Positions 2,833 through 22,855 of a DNA stretch of 64,000 nucleotides are shown here, in pieces. Numbering within the stretch: position 1 is the stretch's first letter; the number at the start of each line of letters is the position of its first letter. Made by a program: the position numbers and the translations under genes. Below the pieces are notes generated by a model, which was not told the origin of the DNA, made no database searches, and was given only the letters and a program-made list of their open reading frames with translations. The stretch is taken from positions 1 to 64,000 of IMG/VR virus record IMGVR_UViG_3300032138_000004. The stretch is one strand, 5' to 3'. Origin of the DNA: a virus. Taxonomy: Duplodnaviria > Caudoviricetes.

Positions 2833-3057
2833 CTACTCCTGAGAGTCTTCTGGGGTGAGGAGGGAGACGGCGCGGGTGAATGTCTTGCCGTTGTCGGTCT
2901 CGAGATGGGCGCGGTGGTGAGAGTGCGACGGCACGGGGCCGACGACTTCCGTGCCGTCGCGCGTCGTGAGGCTGGTGATTCGGCCGGTCATCCGGCCCTG
3001 TCCATGGCGCCACGAGACGCGGGCGTTGACGGTGAGAGTGCGAGGTTTGGGCATCAT
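2833..3057 (-). CDS. small SH3/Tudor-like hypothetical protein (74 aa)
   Basis: Start revised to ATG 3057 (ATGA overlap with upstream stop); RVSWRHGQGRMTGRIT beta pattern. Confidence 0.5.
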   Translation of the reverse strand: MMPKPRTLTVNARVSWRHGQGRMTGRITSLTTRDGTEVVGPVPSHSHHRAHLETDNGKTFTRAVSLLTPEDSQE

Positions 3058-3794
3058 CTTCTCCGGTTGTTGGCCGCGGACGCACTGGCATAGATCGTGT
3101 CGAAGCCCGATACGAAGCGGCGATCGGCGTTGCGCCCGGTGAGGCGGGACTGCCAGAAGGGATCGTGGGCGGCCCACCGAATGCAGGCCGCGATGTCGTC
3201 GACGGTGTGTTGTCGCTCGATGAGGTCGAGTATGGACCCGCACCAGCGGCGCCACGTTGCGTCGGTGAGGTCTTGCGTCGGGATGTTCGCGTGGGGCACC
3301 CGGTTCGCGATGGCGTGGATGCCGGCGGCGAGTGGCGGCACGTTGTCGGGGATGGTCCGCGACTTCTTCGGCGGATCCTTCGTACCCTTGCCCTTCTCGA
3401 AGGGGGCGAGCCTCACGCGGGCGTGCTCCAGCTCTTCGACCGTCCGCCACGGCCAGGTCTCCCAATCCTTATTCAGCTCGTAGCGGGTGGACCGCTCGGC
3501 GGTGTGCTGGGCGACGACGTGGACCAGCGCGTAGCCAGAGCGCTTCGGGTTGTCGGAGGTCGGGCGCGTGAGGCGGTGGAGTGCCTTGCGGATCGCGGCC
3601 TCCGATGTGCCGGGCAGCTTCGCCCGAAACTGAGCCATGCCGATCGACGCTTCCTTGCGGGAGAAGCCCCAGGTGTCGTGTGCGATGACCATGAGGACGG
3701 CCCACTCGCTGCCGTTGAGTCGGCCGAAGAGCATGACCGCCCGAAGCCACTCCTGCGAGATCCGGACAAAGGGGGTGGGTTGGGGGCTGGCCAC
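3054..3794 (-). CDS. phage replication initiator, lambda O-like N-terminal domain
   Basis: FVRISQEWLRAV...LNGSEWAVLMVIAHDTWGFSRK...I..AQF winged helix; C-terminal IRWAAHDPFW motif typical of initiators. Confidence 0.8.
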   Translation of the reverse strand: MASPQPTPFVRISQEWLRAVMLFGRLNGSEWAVLMVIAHDTWGFSRKEASIGMAQFRAKLPGTSEAAIRKALHRLTRPTSDNPKRSGYALVHVVAQHTAERSTRYELNKDWETWPWRTVEELEHARVRLAPFEKGKGTKDPPKKSRTIPDNVPPLAAGIHAIANRVPHANIPTQDLTDATWRRWCGSILDLIERQHTVDDIAACIRWAAHDPFWQSRLTGRNADRRFVSGFDTIYASASAANNRRR

Positions 3795-3800
3795 GTCTCG

Positions 3801-3818
3801 GCTCCTGCTCAGTCTGCT
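3801..3818 (-). promoter_or_regulatory. conserved 18-nt leader AGCAGACTGAGCAGGAGC (copy 1, before the initiator gene)
   Basis: Exact copy; contains AGGAG SD. Confidence 0.8.
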
Positions 3819-3860
3819 ACGGTACGTTACCGGTATAACATACCCCTCCTGCTCTGTCGT

Positions 3861-5696
3861 CTAGGACCCATTCGGTGTAGCTTCCCACCGAAACTCGACA
3901 CGGGCGCCGACCAGGAAGGGGCTGGGCCTGGTGTCGAGGGGCTTGCCGCTCCAGCCTGCGAAGTGCTCGGGGCAGGTGAGGAGGAGGTGGTCGCGGGCGC
4001 GGGTGACGGCGACGTACAGCACGCGCAGGTCTTCGTCCTTGTCCTCCTGCGTAGCGCTCTTGCGGGAGCTGGGGAACAGCCCGTCGCGGCAACCCATGAC
4101 GACCACGGCCGGAAACTCCAGCCCCTTCGAGGCGTGGATCGTCATCAGCGGCACCTCGTCGACGTCGAAGCGGACGCGGTCGACGGTGGCTCGGTCGGTC
4201 CACCAGTCGCGAAACGCGGCGGCGGAGGTGCCGCCGAGGTCGGCGAGGATGGCGCCGATGAGGTCGAGGCGGGCGGTGAGCGACCGCGACCGGTAGGCCT
4301 CGCGCACACCCAGATACCCGATGAAGGCGCGGGCGATCTCGGCGGCGCCGAGGTCGGTAGCGTCGGGCAAGCCTTCGACGACGCGGTAGATCGCGCCCCA
4401 CTCTTGATCGCCCTGGCCGGCGGCCATGGCCCTCAACAGGGTCCACCGCATCTTCGCGGCGAGGGCGCGGGTGGTCGCCCACTCCCTGAATCGCGGCGCG
4501 TCCCCCATGACGCCCCACTCGGCCAGCATCCGGGCGAGGTTGTCGTCGGCCGGGTTCGCGGCGAGCCGGATGGCGCGGGCGATGTTCCGGCCGTCCTCGG
4601 TCTCCCAGGGGTCGCCGGAGCCACCGCAGAAGCGGTGCGGCACCCCGCGGCGCTCCAACTCCGCGGCGAGCTCGCGGAGTGGCGCCCACGTGCGGCAGAG
4701 CACCGCGGCGTCCTTCCAGGCAACGCCCAGATCGTGCAGCCGGCTCAGCTTGGCCGCCACCAGTGCGGGTTCGTCGCTGTCGATGAAGGCGTGGACCCGG
4801 TTGGCCCCTTCGCCGATGTCGGGGTGTGGGGTCGCCGCGCGCTCGGCGGTCATCGGCTCCCATGTCAAGACGGCCGTCGGCCCCTTGACGAGCTTGTTGC
4901 CGAGGTCGACGATGGACTGGTCGCTGCGGTAGTTCGCGGTGAGCTGGATGACCTCGTAGTCGTGATCTGCCGCGAGGGCGATGATGGTGGCCGGGACGGC
5001 GCCGCGGAAGCGGTAGATGCTCTGGCGGGGGTCGCCGACGATGAAGATGCTGGCCGAGCCGAGGCCGTTGACGATCGCAACCTGCGCGAGGTTGGTGTCC
5101 TGGTACTCGTCGACGAGGACGTGCGCGTAGTGGCCGATGGCGGCCGTGCGGGCGGCCGGATCGTACTCCAGAAGCTCCAGCGTCATCGCCTCGATCTGGT
5201 CGAAGTCGACGGCGTTGCCGGCCTTGAGCATCGCCCGGTACTCCTCCATCACGGGCTCGCGACGGCGGAGAGTCGACGACCGCTTCGACGTCTCGCCCAC
5301 GGCCTCGGCGGCGGCCCTCAGCACCGACTCGCTGTCGGCCTCGTCGTAGATCGTGAAGTGGCGGGTGAGGCCGAAGCGGTCGGGGAACCGGCGGAGGAGC
5401 TGGGCGCCCCACGAGTGCATCGTCCGCACCGTGGGCATCCCGCCACGGTAGTCGGGCATCACGTCTTCGATGAGGCTGGACACGCGGCTCTTCATTTCGT
5501 CGGCCGCCTTCCGGGTGAAGGTGACGGCCAGGATTCTCTCGGCGGGCACGCCGCCGGTCATGAGGCGGGCGATGCGGCGGGTAAGGCACGCGGTCTTGCC
5601 CGACCCGGCCCCGGCGATAGCCAGGATCCTCGGGTGGTCGCTTTCGACGGCCTGTCGCTGCTGGGGGTTTAGGCCGGTGATGAGGCTTGTGGTCAT
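3861..5696 (-). CDS. UvrD/PcrA/Rep superfamily 1 helicase
   Basis: AGAGSGKT, LVDEYQD, VGDPRQSIYRFRGA, MTIHASKGLEF, YVAVTRA; start revised to ATG 5696 after the SD. Confidence 0.95.
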   Translation of the reverse strand: MTTSLITGLNPQQRQAVESDHPRILAIAGAGSGKTACLTRRIARLMTGGVPAERILAVTFTRKAADEMKSRVSSLIEDVMPDYRGGMPTVRTMHSWGAQLLRRFPDRFGLTRHFTIYDEADSESVLRAAAEAVGETSKRSSTLRRREPVMEEYRAMLKAGNAVDFDQIEAMTLELLEYDPAARTAAIGHYAHVLVDEYQDTNLAQVAIVNGLGSASIFIVGDPRQSIYRFRGAVPATIIALAADHDYEVIQLTANYRSDQSIVDLGNKLVKGPTAVLTWEPMTAERAATPHPDIGEGANRVHAFIDSDEPALVAAKLSRLHDLGVAWKDAAVLCRTWAPLRELAAELERRGVPHRFCGGSGDPWETEDGRNIARAIRLAANPADDNLARMLAEWGVMGDAPRFREWATTRALAAKMRWTLLRAMAAGQGDQEWGAIYRVVEGLPDATDLGAAEIARAFIGYLGVREAYRSRSLTARLDLIGAILADLGGTSAAAFRDWWTDRATVDRVRFDVDEVPLMTIHASKGLEFPAVVVMGCRDGLFPSSRKSATQEDKDEDLRVLYVAVTRARDHLLLTCPEHFAGWSGKPLDTRPSPFLVGARVEFRWEATPNGS

Positions 5697-5702
5697 GGTG
5701 GG

Positions 5703-5720
5703 GCTCCTGCTCAGTCTGCT
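5703..5720 (-). promoter_or_regulatory. conserved 18-nt leader (copy 2, before the helicase)
   Basis: Exact AGCAGACTGAGCAGGAGC. Confidence 0.8.
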
Positions 5721-5737
5721 CGCTGTGGTGATCTCTG

Positions 5738-6478
5738 CTATCGCTTCTTCTTCTTGTCGCGTCGTGCGCGGCGCCGCCTTGCGCGGCGCCCCTCGAGGGC
5801 GATGACGTCTCCACGTACAGCCGGCGGGAGAGGGCCGCGCCGAGCTCGGTCGACTTCGTCCTCGGACGGCATCGCTGAGGGGACCGACAGCGGGATCTGA
5901 TCGGTGGCCAGGTTGACCTCGTCGCGACTCCGGATCGGGTTGCCGTCTGGACCGAGAAGCGGCGCCCGACCGGTGTGCTGGCCGCGGTTCACGCCAGCGA
6001 TCCCGTCCGTCGTGTCGTGTCGCACGAGGTAATCGAAGGTCACCGGGTTCCGGAGCATTACCTGCCGGCCGCGGTGGACGGGCACCGCGTCGGAGACGCG
6101 CACGTTGGCGGCGATGGCGTCGTGGAAGGGGTAGACGGCGCGCACCACGGGCGTCATCAGGTCGAGAAAATACGCCTTGTTCGCGGCCAGTTGAGCCTTG
6201 AACGATCCCTCGCGCGACGGTGTCTCGACGCTGACCTGGAGCGACAGGTGCCGCCAACGCTCACCCGATGGGACGACGTCGACCGTGTACCAAAGCGTCA
6301 CCGCCGAGGTCCAGCCACTTAGCCGAATCTTGTGGCGGCAGTGGGGGCGTAGCCGGTCCATCGTCGCCTGCACGCGGGACGGCGTGCGGTAGTCGACGTG
6401 GTTGGCTTCGAGGTGGGCGATCCGCTTGGCGCCGGGCAACCACTCGGTCACCCAACTCCCCGCGAGGCCGGCACTCAT
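5738..6478 (-). CDS. hypothetical protein with basic C-terminal tail
   Basis: Fits the operon with ATGA overlap; protein-like composition. Confidence 0.6.
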   Translation of the reverse strand: MSAGLAGSWVTEWLPGAKRIAHLEANHVDYRTPSRVQATMDRLRPHCRHKIRLSGWTSAVTLWYTVDVVPSGERWRHLSLQVSVETPSREGSFKAQLAANKAYFLDLMTPVVRAVYPFHDAIAANVRVSDAVPVHRGRQVMLRNPVTFDYLVRHDTTDGIAGVNRGQHTGRAPLLGPDGNPIRSRDEVNLATDQIPLSVPSAMPSEDEVDRARRGPLPPAVRGDVIALEGRRARRRRARRDKKKKR

Positions 6479-6606
6479 GGCGACACCATCGCGAGGATCC
6501 CAGACTCATCGACGACGACGGCGACGACGTTGATCAGGAAGAGCCACCCACCGAGGGCGCCCCCCGTGAGGTAGAAGAGGGTGAGAATGTAGGCTGCTCG
6601 CTTCAT
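6475..6606 (-). CDS. small membrane protein (43 aa)
   Basis: AGCAGGAG SD, ATG 6606, MKRAAYILTLFYLTGGALGGWLFLINVVAVVV. Confidence 0.55.
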   Translation of the reverse strand: MKRAAYILTLFYLTGGALGGWLFLINVVAVVVDESGILAMVSP

Positions 6607-6628
6607 GGGCTGCTCCTGCTGCGGCCAA

Positions 6629-6862
6629 CTATCCGGCCTGGTTTCCATCGGTGACGGGGGTGGCCTCGTAGTAGCGGACGAGGACACGTTCACCCGTGTC
6701 CCCCATGACCCACCACCCGCCGGTGCCGCGTCGCTGGCTAGCCTTCGTGCCCTTCTGGCAGGTATCGAGGACGTCGTAAGTTCGGCCCTTCCGCATCCCG
6801 TGCTTCTCATCGACGGGGAGGTCTCTACTCAGCGTGATCTTCATGGGCTTGTCGGGGTTCAT
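6629..6862 (-). CDS. hypothetical protein (77 aa)
   Basis: ATGA overlap with the upstream ATPase gene. Confidence 0.55.
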   Translation of the reverse strand: MNPDKPMKITLSRDLPVDEKHGMRKGRTYDVLDTCQKGTKASQRRGTGGWWVMGDTGERVLVRYYEATPVTDGNQAG

Positions 6863-8946
6863 GGCAGCCGCACCACGCGGACACCGGCGGGAGGCTCCCA
6901 GCCGTCACCAGCGACACATGCGCCGAGGAAGTTGTCGAGCCGGCCGGCCGCGACCTCCTCCACCATCGCTTCGAGGAAGCGGGTGCGCCGCACGGGCTCC
7001 AGATTCTCCATGTCGTCCAGGCCGAGCATTCGCCAGCCGCCGAGCCGGGAGACGACAGCCGACCGTAGCGACATCATCGCGACGGCGTCCACCGACCGAC
7101 TCCCGTGGCCGAGCGAGCGCCCGTCGCGGTCGAGCCGGTAGCGGAAGCCGTTGGCGACGCGGGGGTGGAAGGTGGCGCCGTCGAGGACGCGGGAGGTGAT
7201 GGCGCTGACCGGCGCGGCCAGGGGCTCCATCATCTTCCCCAGGAAGGTCTCCATGACGCCGACGAGGGCGCGGTGGGCCGCGTGGGTGGCCTTCGCCGCC
7301 TTCTGCGTCTCCGCGAGCTGGGCGCGGGAGTTGTGCAGGTTGGCGATGGCCTCCGCGACGTCGCCGAGCCGGTCGATCTTGCCCTGCACCTCGGCACGCT
7401 CTTCGGTGAGGGTGGTGAGCAGTGTGGTCGCGGCGTCGACGTTGCTGCTGCCGAGATCGGCGAGCTTCATGGTGGCAGCGGTGACGGCCTCAGCCAGCCC
7501 GACCTCGGCTTGCTGGTCGGCCGTGATCGCAGCCACGCGGTCGACAGCCGTGGAGGCCTTGCGACCCGCGGCGGTGACGGCGGTACTGGCCGCCCGCTTC
7601 GCGGCGCGGGCGCGGTCGGCGCTACGCGAGGCGGCGCCGGCTCCGGTGCTGGCCGCGCGGCGGTGGGTGTCGGCCTTGTTGAAGGCCTCTTGCAGGCGGA
7701 GCACATCGGCGTCGGTCGGCGGGGTCCATGCCTCCAGCACCTCCCGCGCTACCGCCGCGCCCTCATGCGTAGCGCTCCGCGCGTGGTCGTCGCCTTCGAT
7801 TTGTTCCACAAGGACTTGGAGGGCGGTGACGACCTCGATGGCCGCGTCGGCTGCTTCACGGGTCGCCTCAGCGGCGGCGATGGCGGCGCGGGCGCCGCTG
7901 GCAGCGGCGGCGGCCTTCCGGTCGGCTGCTCGGGCGGCCTTGTCGCCGGCCTCCGCCTCGGGGACGGCCTTGCTTGCTGCGGTCTCGGCGGCGACGGCCT
8001 GGCCGACCGCGTCGTCGGCGGCCTTTCGCTGGGCGTTGGACTCGGCGATCTCCTTGTCCCACTCCCGCGAGCGGAAGCCGTCGAGGTCGCGCTGGGCGGC
8101 GTCGAGGTCGCGCTGGGCGGCGTCGACGGCGGTGGCGCGGCCCTTCTGGATGCCGATGGCCTCTCGCTGGGCGCCGATGCGCTGGTCTAGCTCGGCGCGC
8201 TTCGCCTCCCACTCGGCGACGGTGCCGCCGGGGAGGTCGCTGGCGTCACGGGTGGCCTTCGCCCGGTCGATGGCGCCACCCAGCGAGCGAGCGAGAGCCT
8301 GCTGGTTGTCGTAGCGGTCGCGGGTCGCCTGGATGAGCGCCATGAGGGCGGGCCGGCCGTCGCTGGCGGTGCAGACGGCCGCGGCCTCCTCGGTCGCCCA
8401 CCCCGGCACGTTGAGGTTGTCCAGCAGCTCGAAGAATTCGTTGTCGGTGGACGCGATGCCAGAGACCGCGGTGGCGACCTCGCCGGGATCCCAGGTGGTG
8501 CCGGCGAGCACCTTGTCCTCCAGAAAGCGGAGCGCCTTCTGCGGTGAGAGGTCCAGAAAGTCGCCGATGTCCCACACGCCGCCCTGCCCCACGGCCTTCT
8601 TGACAGCGGAGCCGGCGGCGCGCACGCCGGTCTTCACGTTCATCCCGCACCCGTAGACCAGCCCGTGCTCGAGACTGCGGGGCTTGTCGCGGTGCGACTT
8701 CCACTCCTGCGCGCGGGTGACGACGGTGGTGTCGTCGAAGCTAAGCTGGGCGGCCCATGCGTAGTCGGGCACGCCAAGGACGGGGAACCGCGACCCCTTC
8801 GGGCCGGCGACGACGAGGTCGATGGTGCGGAGTCGGGTGGACTTGCCGGACTCGTTCGCGCCGATGAAGACGGTGACGGGGTCGATGGCGTGGGTGAAGG
8901 TGAGCCGCCCGTGGAGGGTGGTGCCGGCGATTCGGGTGAGTTGCAT
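6859..8946 (-). CDS. Rad50/SbcC/SMC-like coiled-coil ATPase
   Basis: N-terminal Walker A GANESGKS, long Ala-rich coiled coil, C-terminal Walker B LGLDD; start revised to ATG 8946. Confidence 0.8.
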   Translation of the reverse strand: MQLTRIAGTTLHGRLTFTHAIDPVTVFIGANESGKSTRLRTIDLVVAGPKGSRFPVLGVPDYAWAAQLSFDDTTVVTRAQEWKSHRDKPRSLEHGLVYGCGMNVKTGVRAAGSAVKKAVGQGGVWDIGDFLDLSPQKALRFLEDKVLAGTTWDPGEVATAVSGIASTDNEFFELLDNLNVPGWATEEAAAVCTASDGRPALMALIQATRDRYDNQQALARSLGGAIDRAKATRDASDLPGGTVAEWEAKRAELDQRIGAQREAIGIQKGRATAVDAAQRDLDAAQRDLDGFRSREWDKEIAESNAQRKAADDAVGQAVAAETAASKAVPEAEAGDKAARAADRKAAAAASGARAAIAAAEATREAADAAIEVVTALQVLVEQIEGDDHARSATHEGAAVAREVLEAWTPPTDADVLRLQEAFNKADTHRRAASTGAGAASRSADRARAAKRAASTAVTAAGRKASTAVDRVAAITADQQAEVGLAEAVTAATMKLADLGSSNVDAATTLLTTLTEERAEVQGKIDRLGDVAEAIANLHNSRAQLAETQKAAKATHAAHRALVGVMETFLGKMMEPLAAPVSAITSRVLDGATFHPRVANGFRYRLDRDGRSLGHGSRSVDAVAMMSLRSAVVSRLGGWRMLGLDDMENLEPVRRTRFLEAMVEEVAAGRLDNFLGACVAGDGWEPPAGVRVVRLP
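8080..8121. repeat. perfect 21-bp tandem duplication (AAQRDLD x2, one heptad)
   Basis: gtcgaggtcgcgctgggcggc twice. Confidence 0.9.
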
Positions 8947-8951
8947 GTGGT

Positions 8952-8969
8952 GCTCCTGCTCAGTCTGCT
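8952..8969 (-). promoter_or_regulatory. conserved 18-nt leader (copy 3, before the SMC-like gene)
   Basis: Exact copy. Confidence 0.8.
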
Positions 8970-8990
8970 TGTCGTGGTTGAGGTATGGGC

Positions 8991-10409
8991 TCAGAGGCTC
9001 GCGTCCAGCATCGCGTCGAGGCGGACGCGGCAGGCTTGGAGTTCGTCGTCGGTCATCTCGGCGGGATCGTAGTTGAGCGATGCACTCTGGCGCGGCGTGA
9101 CCATGCCGAGCCCTTGGTCGATGTATTCGATGAGGGCGTTGCGGGCGGCGAGTTCCGGGTCGAGGCCGTCGTCGTCGTCGGTCGGGCGCAGCTCCGCTTC
9201 CACGTGCCCCTGCCCGGCGTCGGCTTCGGGGTCGTACACGTCGCCGATGTCGATGACCTCCACCTCTGGGAGGTCGAGGCCGCGCTGGAGGCGGGCGCTG
9301 ATCGATTGCCATTGGCGCATCGCGGCGTCGTCGCCAGCCCAGCCGGTGACGGCGAGGACCGCGGCGCCGTTCTGGATGCTGACGGTGTGCCAGCCCAGCG
9401 CGGGGTGCGCCTTCATCGCGTTCCGGCGGGCCACGGTGATCGCCTTCTTGAGGGCGTTGGCCTGGAGTTCGATGTAGGCCTGGAACGCTTGAGCGACGGC
9501 CCGACAGCGGAGGTTGAACGTGTAGCCGATGCCCGACCCGACGGGGATGTAGCCCCAGCCCTTCTCGGCCTCGTGGAAGGCCTCGTTGACGAGGTAGACG
9601 TCCTCCGCGTGCAAGAGGGTGTCGGACTCGTTGCCCCAGCCGGTCTTGTTGGCCAGGTTCGACAGCATGTTCGCCAGATCCTTCGTCGGCTCGTAGTCTA
9701 GCGTGTAGTTCACGATCACCGGGTTCCCGGTCATCGGGGCGGGGCCGACGACGACGATGGCGACCACGATGCGGAGCACGTCGCCCGGCCGCCCGTCCTT
9801 GCGCACGGCGCGCTGGACGTAGGGGTTGGTGCGCTCTTCGCCGTCCACCATCACGCGCGGCGGCTGGATGACGTTGCAGCCGGCGGTGGCGTTGATCCGG
9901 AGGTAGCCGGGGTATGTCACCGACGCCTTGTTCCGGTCGCCGATCACCACGTCCTTCCACTCGGTCTGTCCCTTGTGGCCGTTGCGCCCGCGCTCGCTGA
10001 CGGCGTTGCCGAAGCAGGCGCGTCCTTCGTGCTGGGGGTCGGTGCAGACGGGCCGGCGGCCCTTGATCTGCCATAGCGTGCCGTCTTCCATAGACAGCCG
10101 GACGGGGGCGAGGACCTGGTGCAGCGCCCCGGCGGTGGTGTGCCGGACGAAGGCCTCGTGGTTGCCCAGCACCGACACCTTCTGGCGGCGGACGTCCAGG
10201 GCGAGCTCGGCAAGCCGCTCGGCCACGACCATCGCGCGGGGGTCCAGTGCGGAGTCGTCGAGAAGTTCGGCGCCGACAGCGGCGACGAGGCCGCGGCGGT
10301 CGCCGGTCTTGAGGGCGGTGATGGCTGCGCGGTTCAGCTTGAGGCCGTCGTAGCGAAGTCGGGCGATGTCGGTGCTGGGCGATGCGCCCGTCTGCTCGGG
10401 GGTCGACAT
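8991..10409 (-). CDS. hypothetical protein, possibly a RecT/Rad52-like single-strand annealing protein
   Basis: Start revised to ATG 10409; TYPGYLRIN...KKAITVARRNAMK plus acidic tail; position next to the SMC-like gene. Confidence 0.4.
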   Translation of the reverse strand: MSTPEQTGASPSTDIARLRYDGLKLNRAAITALKTGDRRGLVAAVGAELLDDSALDPRAMVVAERLAELALDVRRQKVSVLGNHEAFVRHTTAGALHQVLAPVRLSMEDGTLWQIKGRRPVCTDPQHEGRACFGNAVSERGRNGHKGQTEWKDVVIGDRNKASVTYPGYLRINATAGCNVIQPPRVMVDGEERTNPYVQRAVRKDGRPGDVLRIVVAIVVVGPAPMTGNPVIVNYTLDYEPTKDLANMLSNLANKTGWGNESDTLLHAEDVYLVNEAFHEAEKGWGYIPVGSGIGYTFNLRCRAVAQAFQAYIELQANALKKAITVARRNAMKAHPALGWHTVSIQNGAAVLAVTGWAGDDAAMRQWQSISARLQRGLDLPEVEVIDIGDVYDPEADAGQGHVEAELRPTDDDDGLDPELAARNALIEYIDQGLGMVTPRQSASLNYDPAEMTDDELQACRVRLDAMLDASL

Positions 10410-10414
10410 AGTGC

Positions 10415-10972
10415 TCACTCTCCGGTGGCTGGTGAAAAGACGAGGTCGTTGGTGGTCACGCCGAAGTATTTGGCGAGTTGGCTGAGCCGGACGAGGTCGA
10501 TCCGGCGGTACTCGCCGGACTCCCAGCGGACAAGCGTGCTCTGCTGGCTGGCCTTGCCCCACGCATCGCGGGCGACCTGGGGGGTGCCGCGGACGCCGCG
10601 GAGCTGGCGAATCATCCGGCGGGTGTTGAGGTCGGCGGCCTCGAGGTCGGGCATGGCGCCGCGGAGGGTGGGAGGCTTCGCCGCCTCCACCTCCAGGGCG
10701 ATGGTCAAGCGTCGAGCGGCTTCAACCGTCTTGTCCCAGGCCCGCCAGCCGCCGATGAGGTGGCGTGGGTGGACGCGGCAGGCCTTCGCCACACCCCACA
10801 CGACGTCGAGGTAGACGTTGCGCCGCCCACCCGATTCCAAGAAGGTGATGGTGGACGTGGCCTGTCCAGCGCGCTCGGCGCACTTCGCGACCGATAGGCC
10901 GTTGCTCATGCGGGCGGCGCGGCATCGGAGCCGGATAGCCCACTCGTCGTTCAGGGGTGCGTCGTTTGTCAT
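10415..10972 (-). CDS. regulator with two XRE-type HTH domains
   Basis: GLSVAKCAERAGQATSTITFLESG and QQSTLVRWESGEYRRIDLVRLSQLAKYFGV. Confidence 0.8.
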   Translation of the reverse strand: MTNDAPLNDEWAIRLRCRAARMSNGLSVAKCAERAGQATSTITFLESGGRRNVYLDVVWGVAKACRVHPRHLIGGWRAWDKTVEAARRLTIALEVEAAKPPTLRGAMPDLEAADLNTRRMIRQLRGVRGTPQVARDAWGKASQQSTLVRWESGEYRRIDLVRLSQLAKYFGVTTNDLVFSPATGE

Positions 10973-11100
10973 GCCAACAGCATTACCACTACAGCATACC
11001 AGACGCAAGTACGGGGCCACTTTCCCCGCTTCTCCCCAGGTTTGTCCACATCGGGGATCGATCTATCTAGGAGGGGGTGATCCAGTCGTGTGGGAGGGGC

Positions 11101-11170
11101 CCTAGACGTTCCGCCCCCACCCACTCCTAGACGTTCCGGTAGGCCGTAGAAGAAGAGATAGAAGAAGAGA
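11101..11170. repeat. direct repeats in the divergent intergenic region
   Basis: CCTAGACGTTCCG at 11101 and 11126; TAGAAGAAGAGA in tandem at 11147 and 11159. Confidence 0.85.
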
Positions 11171-11227
11171 TCCATAAGGTCACCTCTCTCCCCCTTGAGC
11201 CTGTAGACATTGAGGGCCTTGGGTCTG

Positions 11228-11239
11228 GCGTGGTAGACC
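11228..11239 (+). promoter_or_regulatory. putative extended -10 promoter GCGTGGTAGACC
   Basis: Identical 12-mer at 22125, and CGTGGTAGA at 14146; all lie just upstream of + strand genes. Confidence 0.5.
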
Positions 11240-11266
11240 CTTCAACAGAGACGAAGCGAGCAGAGC

Positions 11267-11767
11267 GTGCATGAGCAGCGATGGCAGCCGGTGGTTCAGG
11301 ATGCCCTAGTGGCCGGCCTCGGCCTTGCCCGCTGGCGGATCCACGACGAGATCCCTACACGCGACGGCAGCCGGCTCGACCTCGTCCACGTTCACGACAC
11401 CAAGCTCACAGCTTTCGAGCTGAAGATGGCGGAGCCGGGCCAGGCCCTCGCGCCCCTCGATGCGCGGGCACTGCGCCAGCTCCGCCACTACTGCAAAGCG
11501 GCCGATCTCGTCTACGTCGTGACGGTCGCAGCCGCTCGACGTTTGACCATCGCCCACGACGGGCAGACGCTACACCTGGAGCCGCTTGAGCACATGGCTC
11601 TACCGGTAGGGGTTGGGTGGGTCGTCTTCGATCGTCTCACTCGTGACCTGACGGTGTTGGCGCCGGCAGAGCAGCAGGAACCAGACACCGAGGATCGCGC
11701 CTTCGTCCTCGACCAACTGGCCAACAGACTCGGAAAGGCACAAAGAGCGATCCGTCGATGTCGATGA
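11267..11767 (+). CDS. PD-(D/E)XK nuclease-like protein (MmcB-like)
   Basis: EIP...RLDLV...AFELK...QLRHYCKAADLVYVV. Confidence 0.65.
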   Translation: MHEQRWQPVVQDALVAGLGLARWRIHDEIPTRDGSRLDLVHVHDTKLTAFELKMAEPGQALAPLDARALRQLRHYCKAADLVYVVTVAAARRLTIAHDGQTLHLEPLEHMALPVGVGWVVFDRLTRDLTVLAPAEQQEPDTEDRAFVLDQLANRLGKAQRAIRRCR

Positions 11768-12057
11768 TGACCCCGCAAACTGTGGTCGATGCCACCCACT
11801 ACATCCAGGCGATAGCTAGCCCCCTGCTCGACGCGGCCGTCCGCGATGCACTGCGGATCGACTACCACGTCCTCCACGATGAACACATTTTCGTCGTACA
11901 GGTGCCGGAGTCGTCGGTGCGCTACCTCGTCGGCCGCCGTGGGGAGACGGCGAACGCGATGCGCAAGCTGCTCCGGTCCTGGTGCGGGGTCCGGCGGCTG
12001 CGGTCGCTGGTCGACGTGCGGGTGCGCCCGCTTGACGGTGCCACACACCCGCCATAG
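11758..12057 (+). CDS. KH-domain RNA-binding protein (KhpA-like)
   Basis: LVGRRGETANAMRKLL GxxG loop in a single ~95-aa domain. Confidence 0.75.
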   Translation: MSMMTPQTVVDATHYIQAIASPLLDAAVRDALRIDYHVLHDEHIFVVQVPESSVRYLVGRRGETANAMRKLLRSWCGVRRLRSLVDVRVRPLDGATHPP

Positions 12058-12075
12058 CATAGTGGGGACTCAACA

Positions 12076-12093
12076 AGCAGACTGAGCAGGAGC
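12076..12093 (+). promoter_or_regulatory. conserved 18-nt leader (copy 4)
   Basis: Exact copy, 6 nt before ATG 12100. Confidence 0.8.
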
Positions 12094-12099
12094 CCAACG

Positions 12100-12879
12100 A
12101 TGACAACGACACCCCAGACCCTCGAGGCCGTGATGCGCGACCTCGGACTCGACGGGGACGGCCTCGGCCGCCTCATGGCTGCCTACCGCCACAAGCAGGA
12201 CGGCGACCGAGCCAGCGGGACGACGACGACGTGCCCGATCTGCCGCAACCGGTCGAAGGCCAGGCCGCGGTCGCTGTCGGGCTCCGCGTGCCGGGGGCTG
12301 ATCTGGATGTACCAGCAGGACGCTCATCAGTGGCACCACGTCGATCGCATCATGTGCGGGACGAAGTCGGCGTCGGCGGTGGCGGGCGACTGGTCGCGCA
12401 CGGCCGGCGACGGGTGGGAGTTGACCGAGCGGGCGGAGCCGGATCCGGGGGACGACTCGAAGAGCTCGTCGGGCATGTACCGGCTCACCCAGATCGGCCG
12501 GGACTTCGTTCTTGGCCTGGTGACGGTGCCCTCGGCCTACGTCTGGCACCAGCGCCATCGGAGGCTGGCGCCCAACGCGCGCCAGATCGGCATCGAGACC
12601 GCGCTGGGGCAGCGCTTCGACTACGCTGAGGTGATGGGCGAGGCGGCAAGCTCGGAGGGGCTGCTGCGGCCGTATCGGCGCGAGTGGGTTGTGACCGCCT
12701 TTCGCGACAACGCTTCCGCGACCTCGATGCCGTGGCGGATCAACGCCTGGAAGTGCGGCGGCGAGCGCCAGCAGCAACTCCGGCCGATTGTTCCGCCCCG
12801 CGAGGCCGACGAGGTCCATTGGGGCAGCTCACGCATCGACGCGGCCCGCGCCTTCGTGCGCCGACGTCGGGGGCTGTGA
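12100..12879 (+). CDS. hypothetical protein (CPIC motif, possible winged helix)
   Basis: Strong SD; TCPIC and GMYRLTQIGRDFV. Confidence 0.6.
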   Translation: MTTTPQTLEAVMRDLGLDGDGLGRLMAAYRHKQDGDRASGTTTTCPICRNRSKARPRSLSGSACRGLIWMYQQDAHQWHHVDRIMCGTKSASAVAGDWSRTAGDGWELTERAEPDPGDDSKSSSGMYRLTQIGRDFVLGLVTVPSAYVWHQRHRRLAPNARQIGIETALGQRFDYAEVMGEAASSEGLLRPYRREWVVTAFRDNASATSMPWRINAWKCGGERQQQLRPIVPPREADEVHWGSSRIDAARAFVRRRRGL

Positions 12880-12896
12880 TGGGCGGGGGGGGAACG

Positions 12897-13859
12897 ATGA
12901 GCGACACGCTACTGCACAGATGGACGCAGCCCGATCCGGTGGGCGACCCCACGCGGTGGTCGTGCTCGTGTCTGATCGAGCACCGGGGCACACCCCCCGC
13001 CCTGCTGTGCCCCGATCGCGTGGCGCAACTACAGGCCGACCTCATCGACGCCCGCCGAAAGCTGGAGGCCGCGCGGGCGAAGGTGGCGGAGTTGGAGGAC
13101 GACATGCACCTCCGCATCCGTGAGGGCTACGACCGAACCGTGGCCGATGCGTGGCGCGCGGAGGTGGCCAGGGTGACAGCAGAGCGCGACGCCGAGCGGG
13201 CGAGGGTGGCGGAGTTGGAAGCCGCAGCGGAAGACGCCAGCCAGATTCCGCCCCTACCTGGAGACCCACAGGGCACCCGTGCCTTCGTCCGTTGGCTGCT
13301 GAGCAAGCCTCAGTTCCAGCAGCAGCGCATGCTGCTGGCCACGCAGGAGGGCCAGCGCCTCCAACAGCGCGCCGAAGCGGCAGAGCGGGCCCTCGCCGCC
13401 GAGCATGAGGCGCACGCCGCGTTGCGTGGGCGGATCGAGGGGCTCGTTGTCGAGTTTGACGGCATCGAGGAGGGGGCGGAGGGTGACCGCCTCCAGCACG
13501 AATGTAGACGGCGACCTCGATCGGCGTCCCAAGCGCAGGGCGTCGCCAGCGCCAGCAAGCACGCCGCCAGCCGCCTCCGCGCCCTCCTCACCCCAGGCCC
13601 CAAGCCCCGGATATGCCGCTGCGGCACGCCCGAATCCGACGAGGCGTGGGAGGAGGGGGTCCGAGGTTGCCCTAGGTGCGGTCGCCCCTGGCCCGAGTGT
13701 CTCACCGCCCCAGGCCCCGAGCCATCGACGGACGGAGAGCGTGAGCGCACTAATCGTCCGTGCCCGTGGCCCGGCGGCTACACCCTCTGTCGGCATCGGC
13801 TGACCCAGTGCTCGGATCGCTGCGCCCTCCTCACCCCAGAGACGGATGGCGGGTCGTGA
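12897..13859 (+). CDS. mosaic coiled-coil / Cys-rich hypothetical protein
   Basis: RAKVAELE/RARVAELE repeats and CxxC knuckles; start uncertain (12879 or 12897). Confidence 0.5.
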   Translation: MSDTLLHRWTQPDPVGDPTRWSCSCLIEHRGTPPALLCPDRVAQLQADLIDARRKLEAARAKVAELEDDMHLRIREGYDRTVADAWRAEVARVTAERDAERARVAELEAAAEDASQIPPLPGDPQGTRAFVRWLLSKPQFQQQRMLLATQEGQRLQQRAEAAERALAAEHEAHAALRGRIEGLVVEFDGIEEGAEGDRLQHECRRRPRSASQAQGVASASKHAASRLRALLTPGPKPRICRCGTPESDEAWEEGVRGCPRCGRPWPECLTAPGPEPSTDGERERTNRPCPWPGGYTLCRHRLTQCSDRCALLTPETDGGS

Positions 13860-13931
13860 CCGGTGCCGCGCGGGTTGCGGGGCTTGCCGCCATTTGAAAG
13901 CACCTCGATCGTCGCACTCCTGCACGAGTCG

Positions 13932-13980
13932 GCAGGACCCCCACATCCGGATCCCCCCTGCTGGATTGTGGGGGTCCTGC
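13932..13980. other. intergenic inverted repeat with a perfect 14-bp stem
   Basis: GCAGGACCCCCACA ... TGTGGGGGTCCTGC. Confidence 0.8.
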
Positions 13981-14167
13981 TGCTTTGTCAAGGAGGGGGT
14001 CGGGATGGAACCCCATGGGCTAGTGGATGCCGGGGATCCTCATGGGGTCCTGGTGCAAGTGGCCGGGCCTGGGGGTGGCGGCTATGCTATTTCGAGGCGT
14101 ACCAGCGGTGCGGCGAATGAGTCGGCAGGTGAGCCCGTCGCCGGACGTGGTAGAACGATCGGGCAGT

Positions 14168-14185
14168 AGCAGACCGCGCAGGAGT
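14168..14185 (+). promoter_or_regulatory. variant of the 18-nt leader (15/18 match)
   Basis: AGCAGACCGCGCAGGAGT before GTG 14191. Confidence 0.6.
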
Positions 14186-14190
14186 CACCA

Positions 14191-15237
14191 GTGAGCCTTG
14201 ACCTAGTGGTTGCCGTCTACGACATCGAGACGAAGTACGACCCGACGAAGGTGGGCGGCTGGAGTGAGCACGAGCGCATGGGCTTTGCGTGCGGGGTCGT
14301 CTCGTGGGTGCATTACCGGCAGAACGGCGCCGCGGTGAGTCGGGCGATTCTGGCCACGAACGTCTACTGGAGCCCGGTGGCGATGGCCGACGACCTTTTG
14401 CGGCCGTGGGCGCACGCCCTCTGCGCCTACAACGGGCACCGGTTCGACATCCCCCTCCTTGTCTCGCAGGCGATAGCGCCGATGGCCGGGCCGTACCTCG
14501 GACACCCCGACCCGAAGGCCGTGGCCGCGGTGGCTGGCCACCTCTGGACAGCGGGGATCCAACGGTTCCCGATCGTGCGCATGGAGCAGGAGATCCCGAA
14601 GTTCGCCCACCTCCCGAAGCTCTGGGATCGGTTCCGTGCGGCCCTCATGGCGCGGTGGATGACCAACGGGGGCCTCCCCCGCGCCATGGGGCACCGTCTC
14701 GGCGAGTGGATGCAGCGGGGGGCCGACTACTCCCGCCTCGTGCCGCCGGGTACAACGAACCTCGCGATGAGCCGGGCGGAGCTGGCCGCCGAGCTCCAGG
14801 CGCGGACCTTCGACCCGCTCGCGTGGCTGGGCGAGGAGTCGGGCAACCCGCACGTAGCGAAGTTGGACTATCTGCGGGAGGGGTTGGAGCGGGAGCCGTG
14901 GAAGCTCGACGGCGAGGTTGTCCACCACGGCGAGATCCCGCGCATGTGGCGCGAGGGCATGGTCTGGCAGGTGGTGGACTGCTGCCGCGACGACGTCGAT
15001 GCTCTGGCCGAGCTGCTACAGCAAGGGCTGAGTGGGGGGCGCAACGCCCACATCAACGCCAACCAGCTCAACAGCACCGCGCGAAACGCTGCTGGCCAGC
15101 GTGTCCCGATGGGCGCGACGGACCAGTGGATCTCGCCGCACCATGACGACGGTGGGCTCTGGAAGTATCGGATCCCGACGGCCGCCTGGTCGGGCATCCT
15201 AGAAGACATCAGGCGAACGAGGTTCACCCATGGCTGA
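14191..15237 (+). CDS. RNase H-like DEDD 3'-5' exonuclease
   Basis: YDIETK, AYNGHRFDIPLL, CCRDDV (Exo I/II/III-like). Confidence 0.75.
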   Translation: MSLDLVVAVYDIETKYDPTKVGGWSEHERMGFACGVVSWVHYRQNGAAVSRAILATNVYWSPVAMADDLLRPWAHALCAYNGHRFDIPLLVSQAIAPMAGPYLGHPDPKAVAAVAGHLWTAGIQRFPIVRMEQEIPKFAHLPKLWDRFRAALMARWMTNGGLPRAMGHRLGEWMQRGADYSRLVPPGTTNLAMSRAELAAELQARTFDPLAWLGEESGNPHVAKLDYLREGLEREPWKLDGEVVHHGEIPRMWREGMVWQVVDCCRDDVDALAELLQQGLSGGRNAHINANQLNSTARNAAGQRVPMGATDQWISPHHDDGGLWKYRIPTAAWSGILEDIRRTRFTHG

Positions 15238-16888: not shown

Positions 16889-18786
16889 ACCGACGCGGCC
16901 AGCGCGACATCGCCCGGCTCGGGCGGGCGATGTCGAAGGCCTTGACCGAGGCCGCGGGCGGCTCGGAGAGTCCGCTGGATCCGTGCTCGACGGCCTACGA
17001 CTTCATCGAGGAATACAACCCCCTCCTCGACGGCCGCGCATTCGACTGGATCAAGTACAAGCACCTCGTACCGGTGTATCGGGACGTCCACCCGCACGTG
17101 ACGCTCCAGGCCGGCGCCCAGACGGGGAAGACCGGCTATCTACTGGCTCGCCTCACCCGCGAGACGTTCCGCCAGTGGGGCGGGATGTTCGGCTACTACT
17201 TCCCCGATCTTCACCTTCCCCGCGCTTTCTCTACCCGCCGTTTCCGACCGTTCATGGGCAGCTCCGAGGATCTGAGATCGTGGGTCGGGGCGAGCTCGAA
17301 GCGGGGCAAGGGCACCGACGCGGTACTCACCCGCACGGTCGGGCCGTCCACGGTGTTCTTCCTGTCGGTGGGCGGGAAGTCGATGACCGAAGGGCTCCCC
17401 ATGCAGGGGATCTTCTTCGACGAGGTCCGGCGCATGGACGCGCACGACATCCAACTCGCCGAGGAGCGGACCAGCGCGCAAGCCAACCCGATCAACATCA
17501 AGGTCAGCACGGCGTTTTACCCTAAGCAGGACATAAACGCGGCCTTCCTTGCCGGAGACCAGCGCTACTTCCACACGATCTGCGGGTGCTCCGATGGGGT
17601 CGTGCTGGCGAAGCGGTGGCCCGACTGCGTGGCCGACCTCACGAAGGCAACGCCGGGGCTGCTGAACAAGGTGGCCCACGCCTACGAACACGCGGGAATG
17701 CCCTACCTGGGGCTCACCGGCGAGGAGCGTAGGCGGTGGGGAGACGCTTGCTACATTTGCCCCGACTGCGGCGAGATCATCGTCGATCCCCGCGAGGGCT
17801 ATTGGGAGCGGCACAATCCCCAGGCATGGGCGCATAGCTACCAGATGCCCCAACTCCTGAGCTGGACGTGGCCGGCATCGCGGACGTGGAAGGCCTTTTC
17901 GGATCCAGAGCAACCGCTGGACATCCAAGAGTTCCACAACAGCAAGCTCGGGCTGCCCTACCTCGACGCCGACAGCCAGCTCGTGCTCGACGAACACCTG
18001 GCATCGTGCGTAAACACGACGATCGTGTGGCCGGCGAACCAGTCGCGACGGTGGCGGAAGCGGCACTGCGTAAACACGGCCATGGGGGTCGATTGCCAGG
18101 CCGGGTACAACGTGTGCGTCATCAAGCAGCGGACAGAGTCGGGGAAGTACCGGACCATCCACCTCGCCGTGCCGCATGGTGATGACCCGTGGAAGGAGAC
18201 GGGGAAGCTCATGCACGAGTACGACGTGCGGTGTTGCGTGGTCGATGCGATGCCGCACTGGAACGAGTCGCGGCGCTTCGCTCGGCAGTGGTTGGGTCGG
18301 GTGTTCCTGGCCTTCTACGGCGACGAAGGCGGGAGCAAGGGAAAGACCGCGATGGTCTCGTGGAAGGACCGCGGGAAGAAGGCCGACCAGCGCGGCGACG
18401 TCGGCTTCAAATTCATCGTCAACATCAACCGCACGACGGGCCTGCACTGGTCGCTGTCAAGGTGGAGCCACCGCCTCAACGAGACACCGCACCCGGAGAA
18501 ATTGGTGGTGATGCTCCCCCAACAGAAGAGCCGGGTGATGCTGACGTCGGGGCTGCGGGTGGGCCGGATGACGCCCACGCCGATCTGCCGGGCGGTCTAC
18601 TGGCCCCACCAGCAATCGGTCGCGTTCCGAAAGGTCTACCTCAACGACGACGCAAAACGGCGCGACGACTTCAAGGTCATCGCGGAGCATGTGGGGGGTG
18701 TCGACCCTCACTTTGCTCATGCGAACCTGTATGCTGACGTGGCGCTCGCCAGGATCAGCCGGGCTACACGCCCTCGAGAGGTGTGA
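16885..18786 (+). CDS. terL: terminase large subunit (GpA-like)
   Basis: AGAQTGKT, IFFDE, VSTA, CPDC zinc finger, MGVD, VDAMP, DPHFAHA. Confidence 0.9.
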   Translation: MNRRGQRDIARLGRAMSKALTEAAGGSESPLDPCSTAYDFIEEYNPLLDGRAFDWIKYKHLVPVYRDVHPHVTLQAGAQTGKTGYLLARLTRETFRQWGGMFGYYFPDLHLPRAFSTRRFRPFMGSSEDLRSWVGASSKRGKGTDAVLTRTVGPSTVFFLSVGGKSMTEGLPMQGIFFDEVRRMDAHDIQLAEERTSAQANPINIKVSTAFYPKQDINAAFLAGDQRYFHTICGCSDGVVLAKRWPDCVADLTKATPGLLNKVAHAYEHAGMPYLGLTGEERRRWGDACYICPDCGEIIVDPREGYWERHNPQAWAHSYQMPQLLSWTWPASRTWKAFSDPEQPLDIQEFHNSKLGLPYLDADSQLVLDEHLASCVNTTIVWPANQSRRWRKRHCVNTAMGVDCQAGYNVCVIKQRTESGKYRTIHLAVPHGDDPWKETGKLMHEYDVRCCVVDAMPHWNESRRFARQWLGRVFLAFYGDEGGSKGKTAMVSWKDRGKKADQRGDVGFKFIVNINRTTGLHWSLSRWSHRLNETPHPEKLVVMLPQQKSRVMLTSGLRVGRMTPTPICRAVYWPHQQSVAFRKVYLNDDAKRRDDFKVIAEHVGGVDPHFAHANLYADVALARISRATRPREV

Positions 18787-19184
18787 TGGTGCGTAGTTTC
18801 GCGAACCAACGACTGCTGGATCGGATCACCGGGAAGACGGTGGAGCGGCAGATCAGCCGGGGCATGGAAGGGGTCAGTGCATCGCCGACCCTTGTGCTGC
18901 TTGAGGACCCCGTGGGCGACCTCGAGGAATTGGTCGAGGCGACCGCGATGGACGAGGGCAAGCGGCCCAGCGCGTTCCTACGGCGGCGCAAGGCCCGCCA
19001 GCTCGGTCTCGACGCATCCACCGGCGCGATGGTGCTGAATGGCCGCGAATGCTGTATGGACTTGGTGCGCGCACTCAACCGCCAACTCCACCGCTTGCGG
19101 CTTCCGGCGGAGCACGTGTGCGTGGGATGCGGCACGAGGTGGGGCGTCCAGAACCTCGTGAGAGAGGAGCGCCGGCATGGCTGA
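18786..19184 (+). CDS. hypothetical zinc-binding protein
   Basis: ECC...CVGC; overlaps both the terL stop and the portal start. Confidence 0.6.
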   Translation: MVRSFANQRLLDRITGKTVERQISRGMEGVSASPTLVLLEDPVGDLEELVEATAMDEGKRPSAFLRRRKARQLGLDASTGAMVLNGRECCMDLVRALNRQLHRLRLPAEHVCVGCGTRWGVQNLVREERRHG

Positions 19185-22124: not shown

Positions 22125-22136
22125 GCGTGGTAGACC
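22125..22136 (+). promoter_or_regulatory. putative extended -10 promoter GCGTGGTAGACC
   Basis: Identical to 11228-11239. Confidence 0.5.
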
Positions 22137-22416: not shown

Positions 22417-22548
22417 ATGAAGCGCCTGGGGCCCCTGGCCGCCGCCGCACTTGTGCTGCTCCACGTCGCGTGCGGCTGGCTCACCCCGACCGAGGCGTGG
22501 CGGTGGGCGTGGCGGGCTATGCTCGAGGGACGAGGTGGCGATGAGTGA
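22417..22548 (+). CDS. small membrane or lipoprotein-like peptide (43 aa, not in the ORF track)
   Basis: MKRLGPLAAAALVLLHVACGW...; fills the gap and overlaps the next start. Confidence 0.4.
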   Translation: MKRLGPLAAAALVLLHVACGWLTPTEAWRWAWRAMLEGRGGDE

Positions 22549-22855
22549 CCCGGTGCTGACTGAGGTGACCTTGGTGCAGGTCGCGGCCCTCGTTGGTGTG
22601 GTGTCGGCGCTCACTGCTGGATTCGGGCAATTGCTGGCCCCGTGGCGGTCGTTGCAGAAGCTGGTCGAGGAGCACCACCGGTTGCTGGTCAAGCCCGATC
22701 ACGGCCACGTGTCGCTGGTGCAGCGGGTGCAGGATGCCGAGTCTGAGCTGACACGGCGACGGCAGGCCGACCGAGACATGCACGCCATCCTCGCCCGCAT
22801 CGACCAGCACGTCAGGCCTGTGGAGGAGGATACCGGTGGCACTCCCGGCGCGTAA
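22541..22855 (+). CDS. single-TM coiled-coil protein (holin-like)
   Basis: GAGGTGG SD, ATG 22541; LVQVAALVGVVSALTAGFGQLL. Confidence 0.5.
   Translation: MSDPVLTEVTLVQVAALVGVVSALTAGFGQLLAPWRSLQKLVEEHHRLLVKPDHGHVSLVQRVQDAESELTRRRQADRDMHAILARIDQHVRPVEEDTGGTPGA

Follow-up and report, generated by a model that had tools for sequence, protein, structure and literature searches.

An exactly repeated 18-nucleotide leader precedes replication and recombination genes in an uncultured marine phage

Introduction

Four genes of an uncultured marine phage (Duplodnaviria; Caudoviricetes) are each preceded, a few nucleotides ahead of the start codon, by the same 18 nucleotides, AGCAGACTGAGCAGGAGC, and a fifth gene is preceded by a close variant. 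The phage is part of a 99,775-bp virus contig from a marine metagenome (IMG/VR record IMGVR_UViG_3300032138_000004), the first 64 kb of which, positions 1 to 64,000, constitute the window analysed here. The exact copies begin at 3801(-), 5703(-), 8952(-) and 12076(+), and stand before genes of DNA replication and recombination; their recurrence is real and far beyond chance. We put at roughly 55% the probability that the 18-mer is an analogue of the start-associated sequences (SAS) of mycobacteriophages, that is, an element of the messenger RNA (mRNA) that acts in translation initiation at genes not translationally coupled to an upstream neighbour, and that provides a platform recognised by its sequence.

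The element and its copies

On the minus strand, exact leaders occupy 3801-3818, 5703-5720 and 8952-8969. The first lies 6 nt from the GTG at 3794 of a gene for a RepO-like replication initiator, the second 6 nt from the ATG at 5696 of a UvrD helicase gene, having begun 17 nt past the upstream stop codon, and the third 5 nt from the ATG at 8946 of a gene for a 695-amino-acid (aa) Rad50/SbcC-like ATPase. The fourth exact leader, at 12076-12093 (+), begins 18 nt past the stop codon of a gene for a KH-domain protein and lies 6 nt from the ATG at 12100 of a gene for a 259-aa protein (phrog_2693). The variant leader, AGCAGACCGCGCAGGAGT, matches at 15 of the 18 positions and is found at 14168-14185 (+), 5 nt from the GTG at 14191 of a gene for a 348-aa RNase H-fold exonuclease-like protein. 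All five are sense with respect to the downstream gene and 5-6 nt ahead of its start codon; no antisense copy exists in the contig, and no further copy was found in the rest of its 99,775 bp. When up to three mismatches are allowed, five matches are observed where 0.14 would be expected, and 100 shuffles never gave as many. A first-pass annotation of this DNA, made from the letters alone, had reported the four perfect copies and the 15/18 variant, placed 5-6 nt ahead of start codons and always in the sense orientation, and our motif scan confirms both the positions and the arrangement. The scan of the full contig that it proposed added a single context-bearing copy.

This additional copy, AGACGACAGAGCAGGAGG, is degenerate (14 of 18 positions) and lies at 3845-3862 (-), between the UvrD stop codon and the 3801 copy, 26 nt upstream of the latter. 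It is followed after 3 nt by a mini open reading frame (ORF) of four codons at 3827-3841 (-), which reads ATG TTA TAC CGG TAA. Copy and mini-ORF together may be left over from a motif-bearing gene that was deleted or a gene start that was lost, or may represent a tiny upstream ORF.

The start codons behind the leaders are supported because homology begins at the N-terminus of the encoded proteins: the UvrD domain starts from residue 9, Phage_rep_O from residue 7 and the P-loop of the ATPase from residue 21, and the 348-aa protein is covered from residues 1-4 onwards in Atlas structural alignments. The spacers between leader and start codon are nearly all C and A. In most pairs of copies, similarity drops abruptly at either edge of the 18-mer; between the sites at 5703 and 12076, a stretch of 37 nt that takes in the first codons and ATGACNAC is 86% identical.

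Conservation beyond the ribosome-binding core

Only the AGGAG at positions 13-17 of the motif is able to pair with the near-universal CCUCC core at the 3′ end of 16S ribosomal RNA (rRNA). With a C before and a C after AGGAG, the helix with this core is unable to extend, and the other 13 of the 18 positions are identical in the four exact copies. The hexamer CAGGAG lies 5-7 nt ahead of 16 called starts distributed across the whole contig, which identifies the motif's 3′ third as the ribosome-binding site in general use in this phage community. Since CAGGAG is generic and only AGGAG pairs with 16S rRNA, the element-specific part is the 5′ 12 nt, AGCAGACUGAGC / AGCAGACTGAGC. The motif carries a direct repeat, AGCAG-N4-AGCAG, with two GCAG units 9 nt apart, and the pattern GAC-N-G-N-GCAGGAG is kept in all six copies. 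When words of at least 9 nt recurring in at least four upstream regions of the contig are collected, the full motif is the only one obtained, besides its subword at the Shine-Dalgarno (SD) end (AGCAGGAGC, CAGGAGCCC). The earlier remark that conservation reaches past the SD sequence is thus borne out, and as anatomy the start-associated element proposed there is supported; pairing covers 5 of the 18 nt, so that complementarity to the host 16S tail, which the same annotation had named as a possible refutation, does not fully explain the motif.

Genes and intergenic gaps marked by the element

The proteins encoded behind the leaders are identified with differing certainty. The UvrD/PcrA-type helicase (611 aa; 3861-5696 (-)) is a firm assignment (E 9.5e-58), and the O-like or DnaD-like replication initiator (246 aa; 3054-3794 (-)) a weak one, at 25 bits versus a Pfam cut-off of 28.7 and a PHROG E of 1e-7. 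For the 695-aa P-loop ATPase (6859-8946 (-)), the nearest Atlas clusters are of Rad50/SbcC type (score 0.98) and are look-alikes only; no sequence homologue was found beyond one metagenome fragment. For the 348-aa protein behind the variant motif (14191-15237 (+)), the nearest Atlas clusters are RNase H-fold 3′-5′ exonucleases (score 0.94), an assignment that is an Atlas lead only, and the PHROG match of the 259-aa protein (12100-12879 (+); phrog_2693) has no assigned function. Sequence searches of the PDB added nothing. Among the labels first given to these genes, UvrD therefore holds firmly and the initiator weakly, while the SMC-like ATPase and the exonuclease go back to Atlas look-alikes. 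The broader claim, that the motif marks a coherent set of replication and recombination genes, is supported.

The placement of the motif follows the spacing of the genes. Two divergent operons begin between 10972 and 11309, and in the leftward operon the motif stands before exactly the three genes with upstream gaps of 41-66 nt, while it is missing from the seven downstream genes that have gaps of at most 23 nt or overlap by 4 nt; such a split would arise by chance in 1 case in 120 (exact test, hand calculation). In the rightward operon the motif genes have upstream gaps of 42 and about 330 nt, giving a range of 41-331 nt for all motif genes. Throughout the replication block, every gene at least 41 nt from its upstream neighbour carries the motif and coupled genes do not. 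The packaging genes, which include those for TerL (16930-18786) and portal (19177-21063), are without the motif, though some have gaps of 41-216 nt. Three of the copies begin 17-22 nt past the preceding stop codon, and the 3801 copy begins 42 nt past the UvrD stop. The hexamer ATAGCA upstream of two copies was rejected as a shared element, as it is the stop-codon context of the upstream genes.

Properties of the leader RNA

In the RNA, the motif positions are predicted to be unusually open, with an unpaired score of 0.55-0.61 in the four exact copies, versus 0.41 +/- 0.12 for the corresponding positions of 108 other initiation regions (Mann-Whitney p 0.026 for this openness, variant included). 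No secondary structure is common to the five leaders, which fold no better than shuffled sequences (z -0.03 to +1.56). No Rfam family was found at the motif sites, and the sole match in 23 kb, to gyrA RNA (E 0.73), lies elsewhere. A conserved RNA structure and a known Rfam family were both considered as explanations of the leaders, and neither was found.

Extent of the phage and distribution of the motif

Two phages with modules in common have probably been joined in this contig by the assembler, at about 22.5-22.8 kb. Contig positions 98920-99357 resemble window positions 13149-13871 at 95% identity, and 99461-99775 resemble 22482-22796 at 93%, the contig ending where the repeat ends. Tetranucleotide profiles divide the contig at about 22.5 kb: z-score correlations are 0.83-0.92 within 0.7-22.4 kb and 0.82-0.93 within 22.8-98.9 kb, versus 0.68-0.84 between the two. 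As the contig is probably chimeric, the phage with the motif is known only as a 22.5-kb fragment; the 14168 variant belongs to the same compositional block as the exact copies. It is true of the contig, as first noted, that the right block has no copies, but this block is most likely a second phage and its lack of copies therefore says nothing on regulation. The part of the contig that probably belongs to the other phage also contains a single ORF of 7,058 codons at 27945-49121 (-).

Elsewhere, the exact 18-mer occurs in 22 IMG/VR contigs and 68 GTDB genomes, always as a single copy and taxonomically scattered; the context of the 22 IMG/VR matches was read, and they belong to unrelated sequence families. 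A relaxed pattern, AGCAGACNGNGCAGGAG, revealed no multi-copy contig among the IMG/VR matches listed, only single copies. No close relative of the phage itself was found among GenBank phages or in IMG/VR. Neither the region nor the ATPase nor the KH protein had a match in GenBank phages (megablast, blastn and tblastn), and homologues of UvrD and TerL were found there only at 30% identity or less. No relatives emerged from IMG/VR scans that used the ATPase, TerL, UvrD or the KH alignment as seeds, and in a word-indexed protein search the ATPase matched itself only and the KH protein one 90% homologue, on a 2.4-kb contig. A metagenome scan recovered one mosaic relative, L028 (Ga0209756_1062736), a 1.7-kb sequence corresponding to window positions of about 5700-7930. 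Its first 480 nt are roughly 70-75% identical, as read from the alignment, and the remainder 97-99%, with the breakpoint inside the ATPase gene; a replacement also affects the 77-aa gene, at its N-terminus. Contigs from a second marine study (X2) extend across four motif regions and are about 2-5% diverged, a level at which about two changes are expected in 72 nt, too few to be telling; among the differences listed, there is no indel within a motif, and the spacer ahead of the 8952 copy has lost 2 nt.

The adjoining KH protein

The gene that ends 18 nt ahead of the 12076 copy (11764-12057 (+)) encodes a KhpA-like type II KH-domain protein of 97 aa with a GRRG loop, identified by its family profile and predicted fold. 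In its family, 12 of 14 members match PF13083 (KhpA/KhpB KH domain), with a best E of 2.9e-16; the 97-aa protein itself gives an E of 7.6e-6, which is below the cut-off. An AlphaFold2 model of the protein (pLDDT 93) has the type II KH topology alpha-beta-beta-alpha-alpha-beta, and its best fold matches in the PDB are the KH domains of Era and uS3. The family is small, with 18 cluster representatives among 1.8 billion, mostly of 80-120 aa, and no members were found in GenBank phages or IMG/VR; a stand-alone KH protein on a phage is unusual in itself.

By its position, and by that alone, the protein is a candidate for the trans-acting RNA binder of the motif. It would bind the 18-mer in single-stranded form, with a dimer of the protein probably occupying the two GCAG units, and would thereby switch translation of the replication and recombination set. 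We regard this specific pairing as a long shot, but if true it would give start-associated sequences their first identified trans-acting factor, and phages their first KH-domain translational regulator whose operator is defined. Phage T4 offers a precedent in RegA, a phage RNA-binding protein encoded within the replication cluster, whose targets are the initiation regions of several replication genes. The operators of RegA are AU-rich and poorly conserved, and RegA is not a KH protein; the 18-mer and the KH protein, as a candidate pair, could work similarly.

Surrounding control sequences

Promoter-like sequences precede two of the leaders. A sigma-70-like match, TTGACG-17-TAGCAT, at 12032-12060 (+) is the sole such match in 17 kb and ends 15 nt ahead of the 12076 copy, and an extended -10-like repeat, CGTGGTAGAAC, at 14146-14156 (+) ends 11 nt ahead of the 14168 variant leader. 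Three intergenic copies of this repeat stand before rightward genes of the left fragment, at 11229-11239, 14146-14156 and 22126-22136 (+). Their common form, CGTGGTAGA(C/A)C, reads as an extended -10 promoter element (TGnTAGAMC); two more CGTGGTAGA 9-mers, at 56134 and 91411, lie inside coding regions of the other part of the contig. The copy of CGTGGTAGAAC at 14146 is itself preceded by a long, imperfect hairpin at 13910-14002, with 36-nt arms that are 75% complementary, which is followed by TGCTTTGTC. This hairpin is terminator-like and closes the first rightward operon.

The divergent control region has repeats of another kind, namely CCTAGACGTTCCG in two copies 25 nt apart and AGAAGAAGAGAT in two tandem copies (window 11102-11139 and 11148-11172). 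These repeats do not resemble the 18-mer and are candidate operators for the adjacent regulator with two helix-turn-helix (HTH) motifs, whose gene is the first of the leftward operon (10415-10972 (-)). The best match to the 18-mer within this region, 14 of 18 positions at 11259-11276 (+), is at chance level. A 49-nt inverted repeat, 82% complementary, links 10682-10730 in the two-HTH gene with 11521-11569 in the divergent gene for a 152-aa protein, and the two genes may encode a shared protein segment.

A proposed role in translation initiation

On the reading that we prefer, the 18-mer would be a cis element in the mRNA, situated in the initiation region of genes that recruit ribosomes afresh. 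Its 3′ CAGGAG would serve as a strong ribosome-binding site, and its 5′ 12 nt as a purine-rich, unstructured and open platform. The exact conservation of this 12-nt platform argues for sequence-specific recognition, and the 5′ part would thus be recognised by a trans-acting factor of phage or host origin. Translation of the initiator, the UvrD helicase, the Rad50-like ATPase, the 259-aa protein and the exonuclease-like protein would in this way be set or switched together. We infer that the element acts at the level of RNA rather than DNA, that it co-regulates these genes and that a binder exists, with the KH protein as the candidate.

Several points weigh against this proposal. Exact identity over 18 nt is equally expected of a DNA-binding site or a promoter, and the stoperators of phage L5 are likewise asymmetric, intergenic and oriented with transcription (PMC9283540). 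The copies number only five or six, and they may reflect the recent copying of a good initiation cassette, as the 37 nt common to the 5703 and 12076 sites illustrate. L028, the one relative found by metagenome scan, has no motif site within it, and no RNA run with this phage was found among the sequencing runs searched. The adjacency of KH gene and motif may be a positional coincidence. PF13083 was not found in Anaya, Pixie or Mordin, three published phages with SAS-type elements, and the KH protein is therefore not a general partner of such elements; a general link between KH proteins and SAS was rejected.

Alternative explanations

Were the element to act in DNA, it would be an asymmetric operator of the stoperator type: a regulator, such as the two-HTH protein, would bind the double-stranded 18-mer as a monomer, with one HTH on each AGCAG unit at a distance of 9 bp, and would block the elongating RNA polymerase at intergenic sites across both operons. 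The asymmetry of the site, its intergenic location and its orientation with transcription in both divergent operons recall the L5 stoperators (PMC9283540), and exact 18-bp identity is typical of protein-DNA sites. The direct repeat AGCAG-N4-AGCAG, the two-HTH regulator at the head of the leftward operon and the 14/18 partial copy at 11259-11276 (+) in the divergent control region point in the same direction. However, all copies include the ribosome-binding site at a fixed spacing of 5-6 nt, which stoperators do not, and the control region has its own, different repeats, two each of CCTAGACGTTCCG and AGAAGAAGAGAT. The 11259 match has four mismatches, a level at which we estimate about one chance match per contig, and two other four-mismatch matches lie beyond 22.8 kb, in the probable second phage. 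The association with gaps of at least 41 nt and the open RNA context fit translation better, and we consider the DNA operator improbable. It is similarly doubtful that the copies arose passively, from one initiation cassette spread by short-homology recombination or gene conversion, or acting as a recombination linker, with no function beyond that of a good ribosome-binding site; were this so, the element would be of little consequence. The low copy number, the 86% identity over 37 nt (including ATGACNAC) of the 5703 and 12076 sites, the resemblance of the degenerate copy and its mini-ORF (3845-3827) to a gene-loss scar and the mosaic nature of the phage are all compatible with such copying. 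Yet similarity ends sharply at both edges of the 18-mer in most pairs, and direct repeats, three of them flanking the genes for the initiator, helicase and ATPase, put those genes at risk of deletion and would be expected to disappear unless selected. The same pattern has also evolved independently, with many exact copies, in Cluster K mycobacteriophages and in phage Mordin. The recombination linker suggested in the first-pass annotation finds no support in the mosaic breakpoints, which lie away from the motif sites, inside the ATPase gene in L028 and at the modules 13149-13871 and 22482-22796. A cassette or linker of the T4 PeSL type, in which a promoter and a stem-loop mark the boundaries of modules, was rejected as well, there being no stem-loop at the leaders and the breakpoints in relatives being away from the motif sites.

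A signal for transcription or RNA processing is the least probable of these explanations; the motif would then be a promoter, used by a polymerase or sigma factor specific to the phage, or a site where an endonuclease divides polycistronic RNA into messages translated separately. Phage-specific promoters are long and exact, and two of the copies lie 15 and 11 nt downstream of promoter-like sequences, which would put the motif at the extreme 5′ end of the message, as with the ESAS of Adephagia (PMC11373665). Were a promoter to end 5-6 nt ahead of the start codon, the ribosome-binding site would be missing from the transcript, and the bases upstream of the 18-mer are unconserved, leaving the element too short on that side for a T7-type promoter; on both counts a promoter is unlikely. 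No RNA polymerase gene was seen in the 22.5-kb fragment, and three copies lie within an operon, just 17-43 nt past the preceding stop codon. Other classes of element were also set aside. The copies are spread over 10 kb, tied to start codons and unclustered, at odds with replication iterons; a fixed distance to the start codon is not expected of polar DNA signals like Chi or KOPS; and for a complementary small RNA, the fragment offers no antisense match to the 12-nt part.

Comparison with known systems

The closest counterpart of the 18-mer is the SAS found in Cluster K mycobacteriophages, an asymmetric repeat of 13 bp, GGGATAGGAGCCC, with AGGAG inside it (Pope et al. 2011, PMC3203893; PMC11373665; PMC12699233). 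In each genome, 11-19 non-structural genes have an SAS copy 3-9 bp ahead of their start codon, and the conservation of these copies exceeds what pairing with 16S rRNA would require (PMC3203893, PMC11373665, PMC12699233); they go mostly with genes set apart from their neighbours by larger gaps (PMC3203893, PMC11373665). Some SAS have an ESAS (17-bp inverted repeats and a SigA-like promoter) ahead of them, for example in Adephagia (PMC11373665). In our re-check of Anaya, 16 copies are forward and 1 is reverse. The 18-mer is likewise a short, asymmetric and mostly exact repeat that contains AGGAG, is conserved past 16S pairing, is oriented with its genes and stands a few nucleotides before the start codon; its 5-6 nt at all five copies falls within the 3-9 bp of the SAS. 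It is likewise confined to non-structural genes with larger upstream gaps, and two of its copies share AGGAGCCC with the SAS at the latter's 3′ end. The differences are equally plain: the element has 18 nt rather than 13, and its extension lies in the 12 nt 5′ of AGGAG, whereas that of the SAS lies on both sides. It belongs to an unrelated, uncultured marine phage, with five or six copies in a 22.5-kb fragment versus 11-19 per genome. Aligned on AGGAG, the two differ at four of five upstream positions, and GGGATAGGAGCCC with up to two mismatches has one match in the window, at 56360, which is fewer than expected by chance and is neither at a motif site nor at a start codon. No 17-bp inverted repeat of the ESAS kind is common to the sequences upstream of the leaders, and promoter-like sequences precede two copies only. 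Judged by its sequence, the 18-mer is not the Cluster K SAS, but an independent example of the same kind.

A second counterpart is the 26-bp repeat that precedes eight genes in Citrobacter phage Mordin and that its authors themselves describe as SAS-like (Guan et al. 2015, PMC4611695). We count ten forward copies on re-checking, each with GGAG 10-12 nt before ATG. Both the Mordin repeat and the 18-mer are long and mostly exact, and the former has about 15 conserved nt 5′ of GGAG and serves eight to ten clustered genes on one strand. The Mordin repeat is nevertheless unrelated and AT-rich, its GGAG is 10-12 nt from ATG, its host is enterobacterial, and the genes downstream are small and hypothetical rather than genes for replication enzymes. 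With stoperators the likeness is of another sort. Those of L5 and Cluster A are asymmetric, multi-copy intergenic sites whose orientation follows transcription (Brown et al. 1997, as cited in PMC9283540); they are double-stranded DNA sites of a monomeric repressor, which also occur at the early promoter. The 18-mer shares their asymmetry, intergenic location and co-orientation with transcription, but is fixed to both ribosome-binding site and start codon, to which stoperators bear no fixed relation.

The anatomy of the 18-mer has thus already been described in the SAS and in the Mordin repeat, to which it is unrelated in sequence, and it is the third example. The SAS has been known since 2011 and is still without a mechanism, its role being called ill-defined and in need of experimental verification in papers of 2024 and 2025 (PMC11373665, PMC12699233). 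The present system is compact, with five or six sites, one functional class of genes and an adjoining KH protein, which makes it small and testable. A third unrelated example, from a marine phage of high GC content, points to long exact leaders that enclose the ribosome-binding site as something phages use recurrently, and not as a peculiarity of mycobacteriophages.

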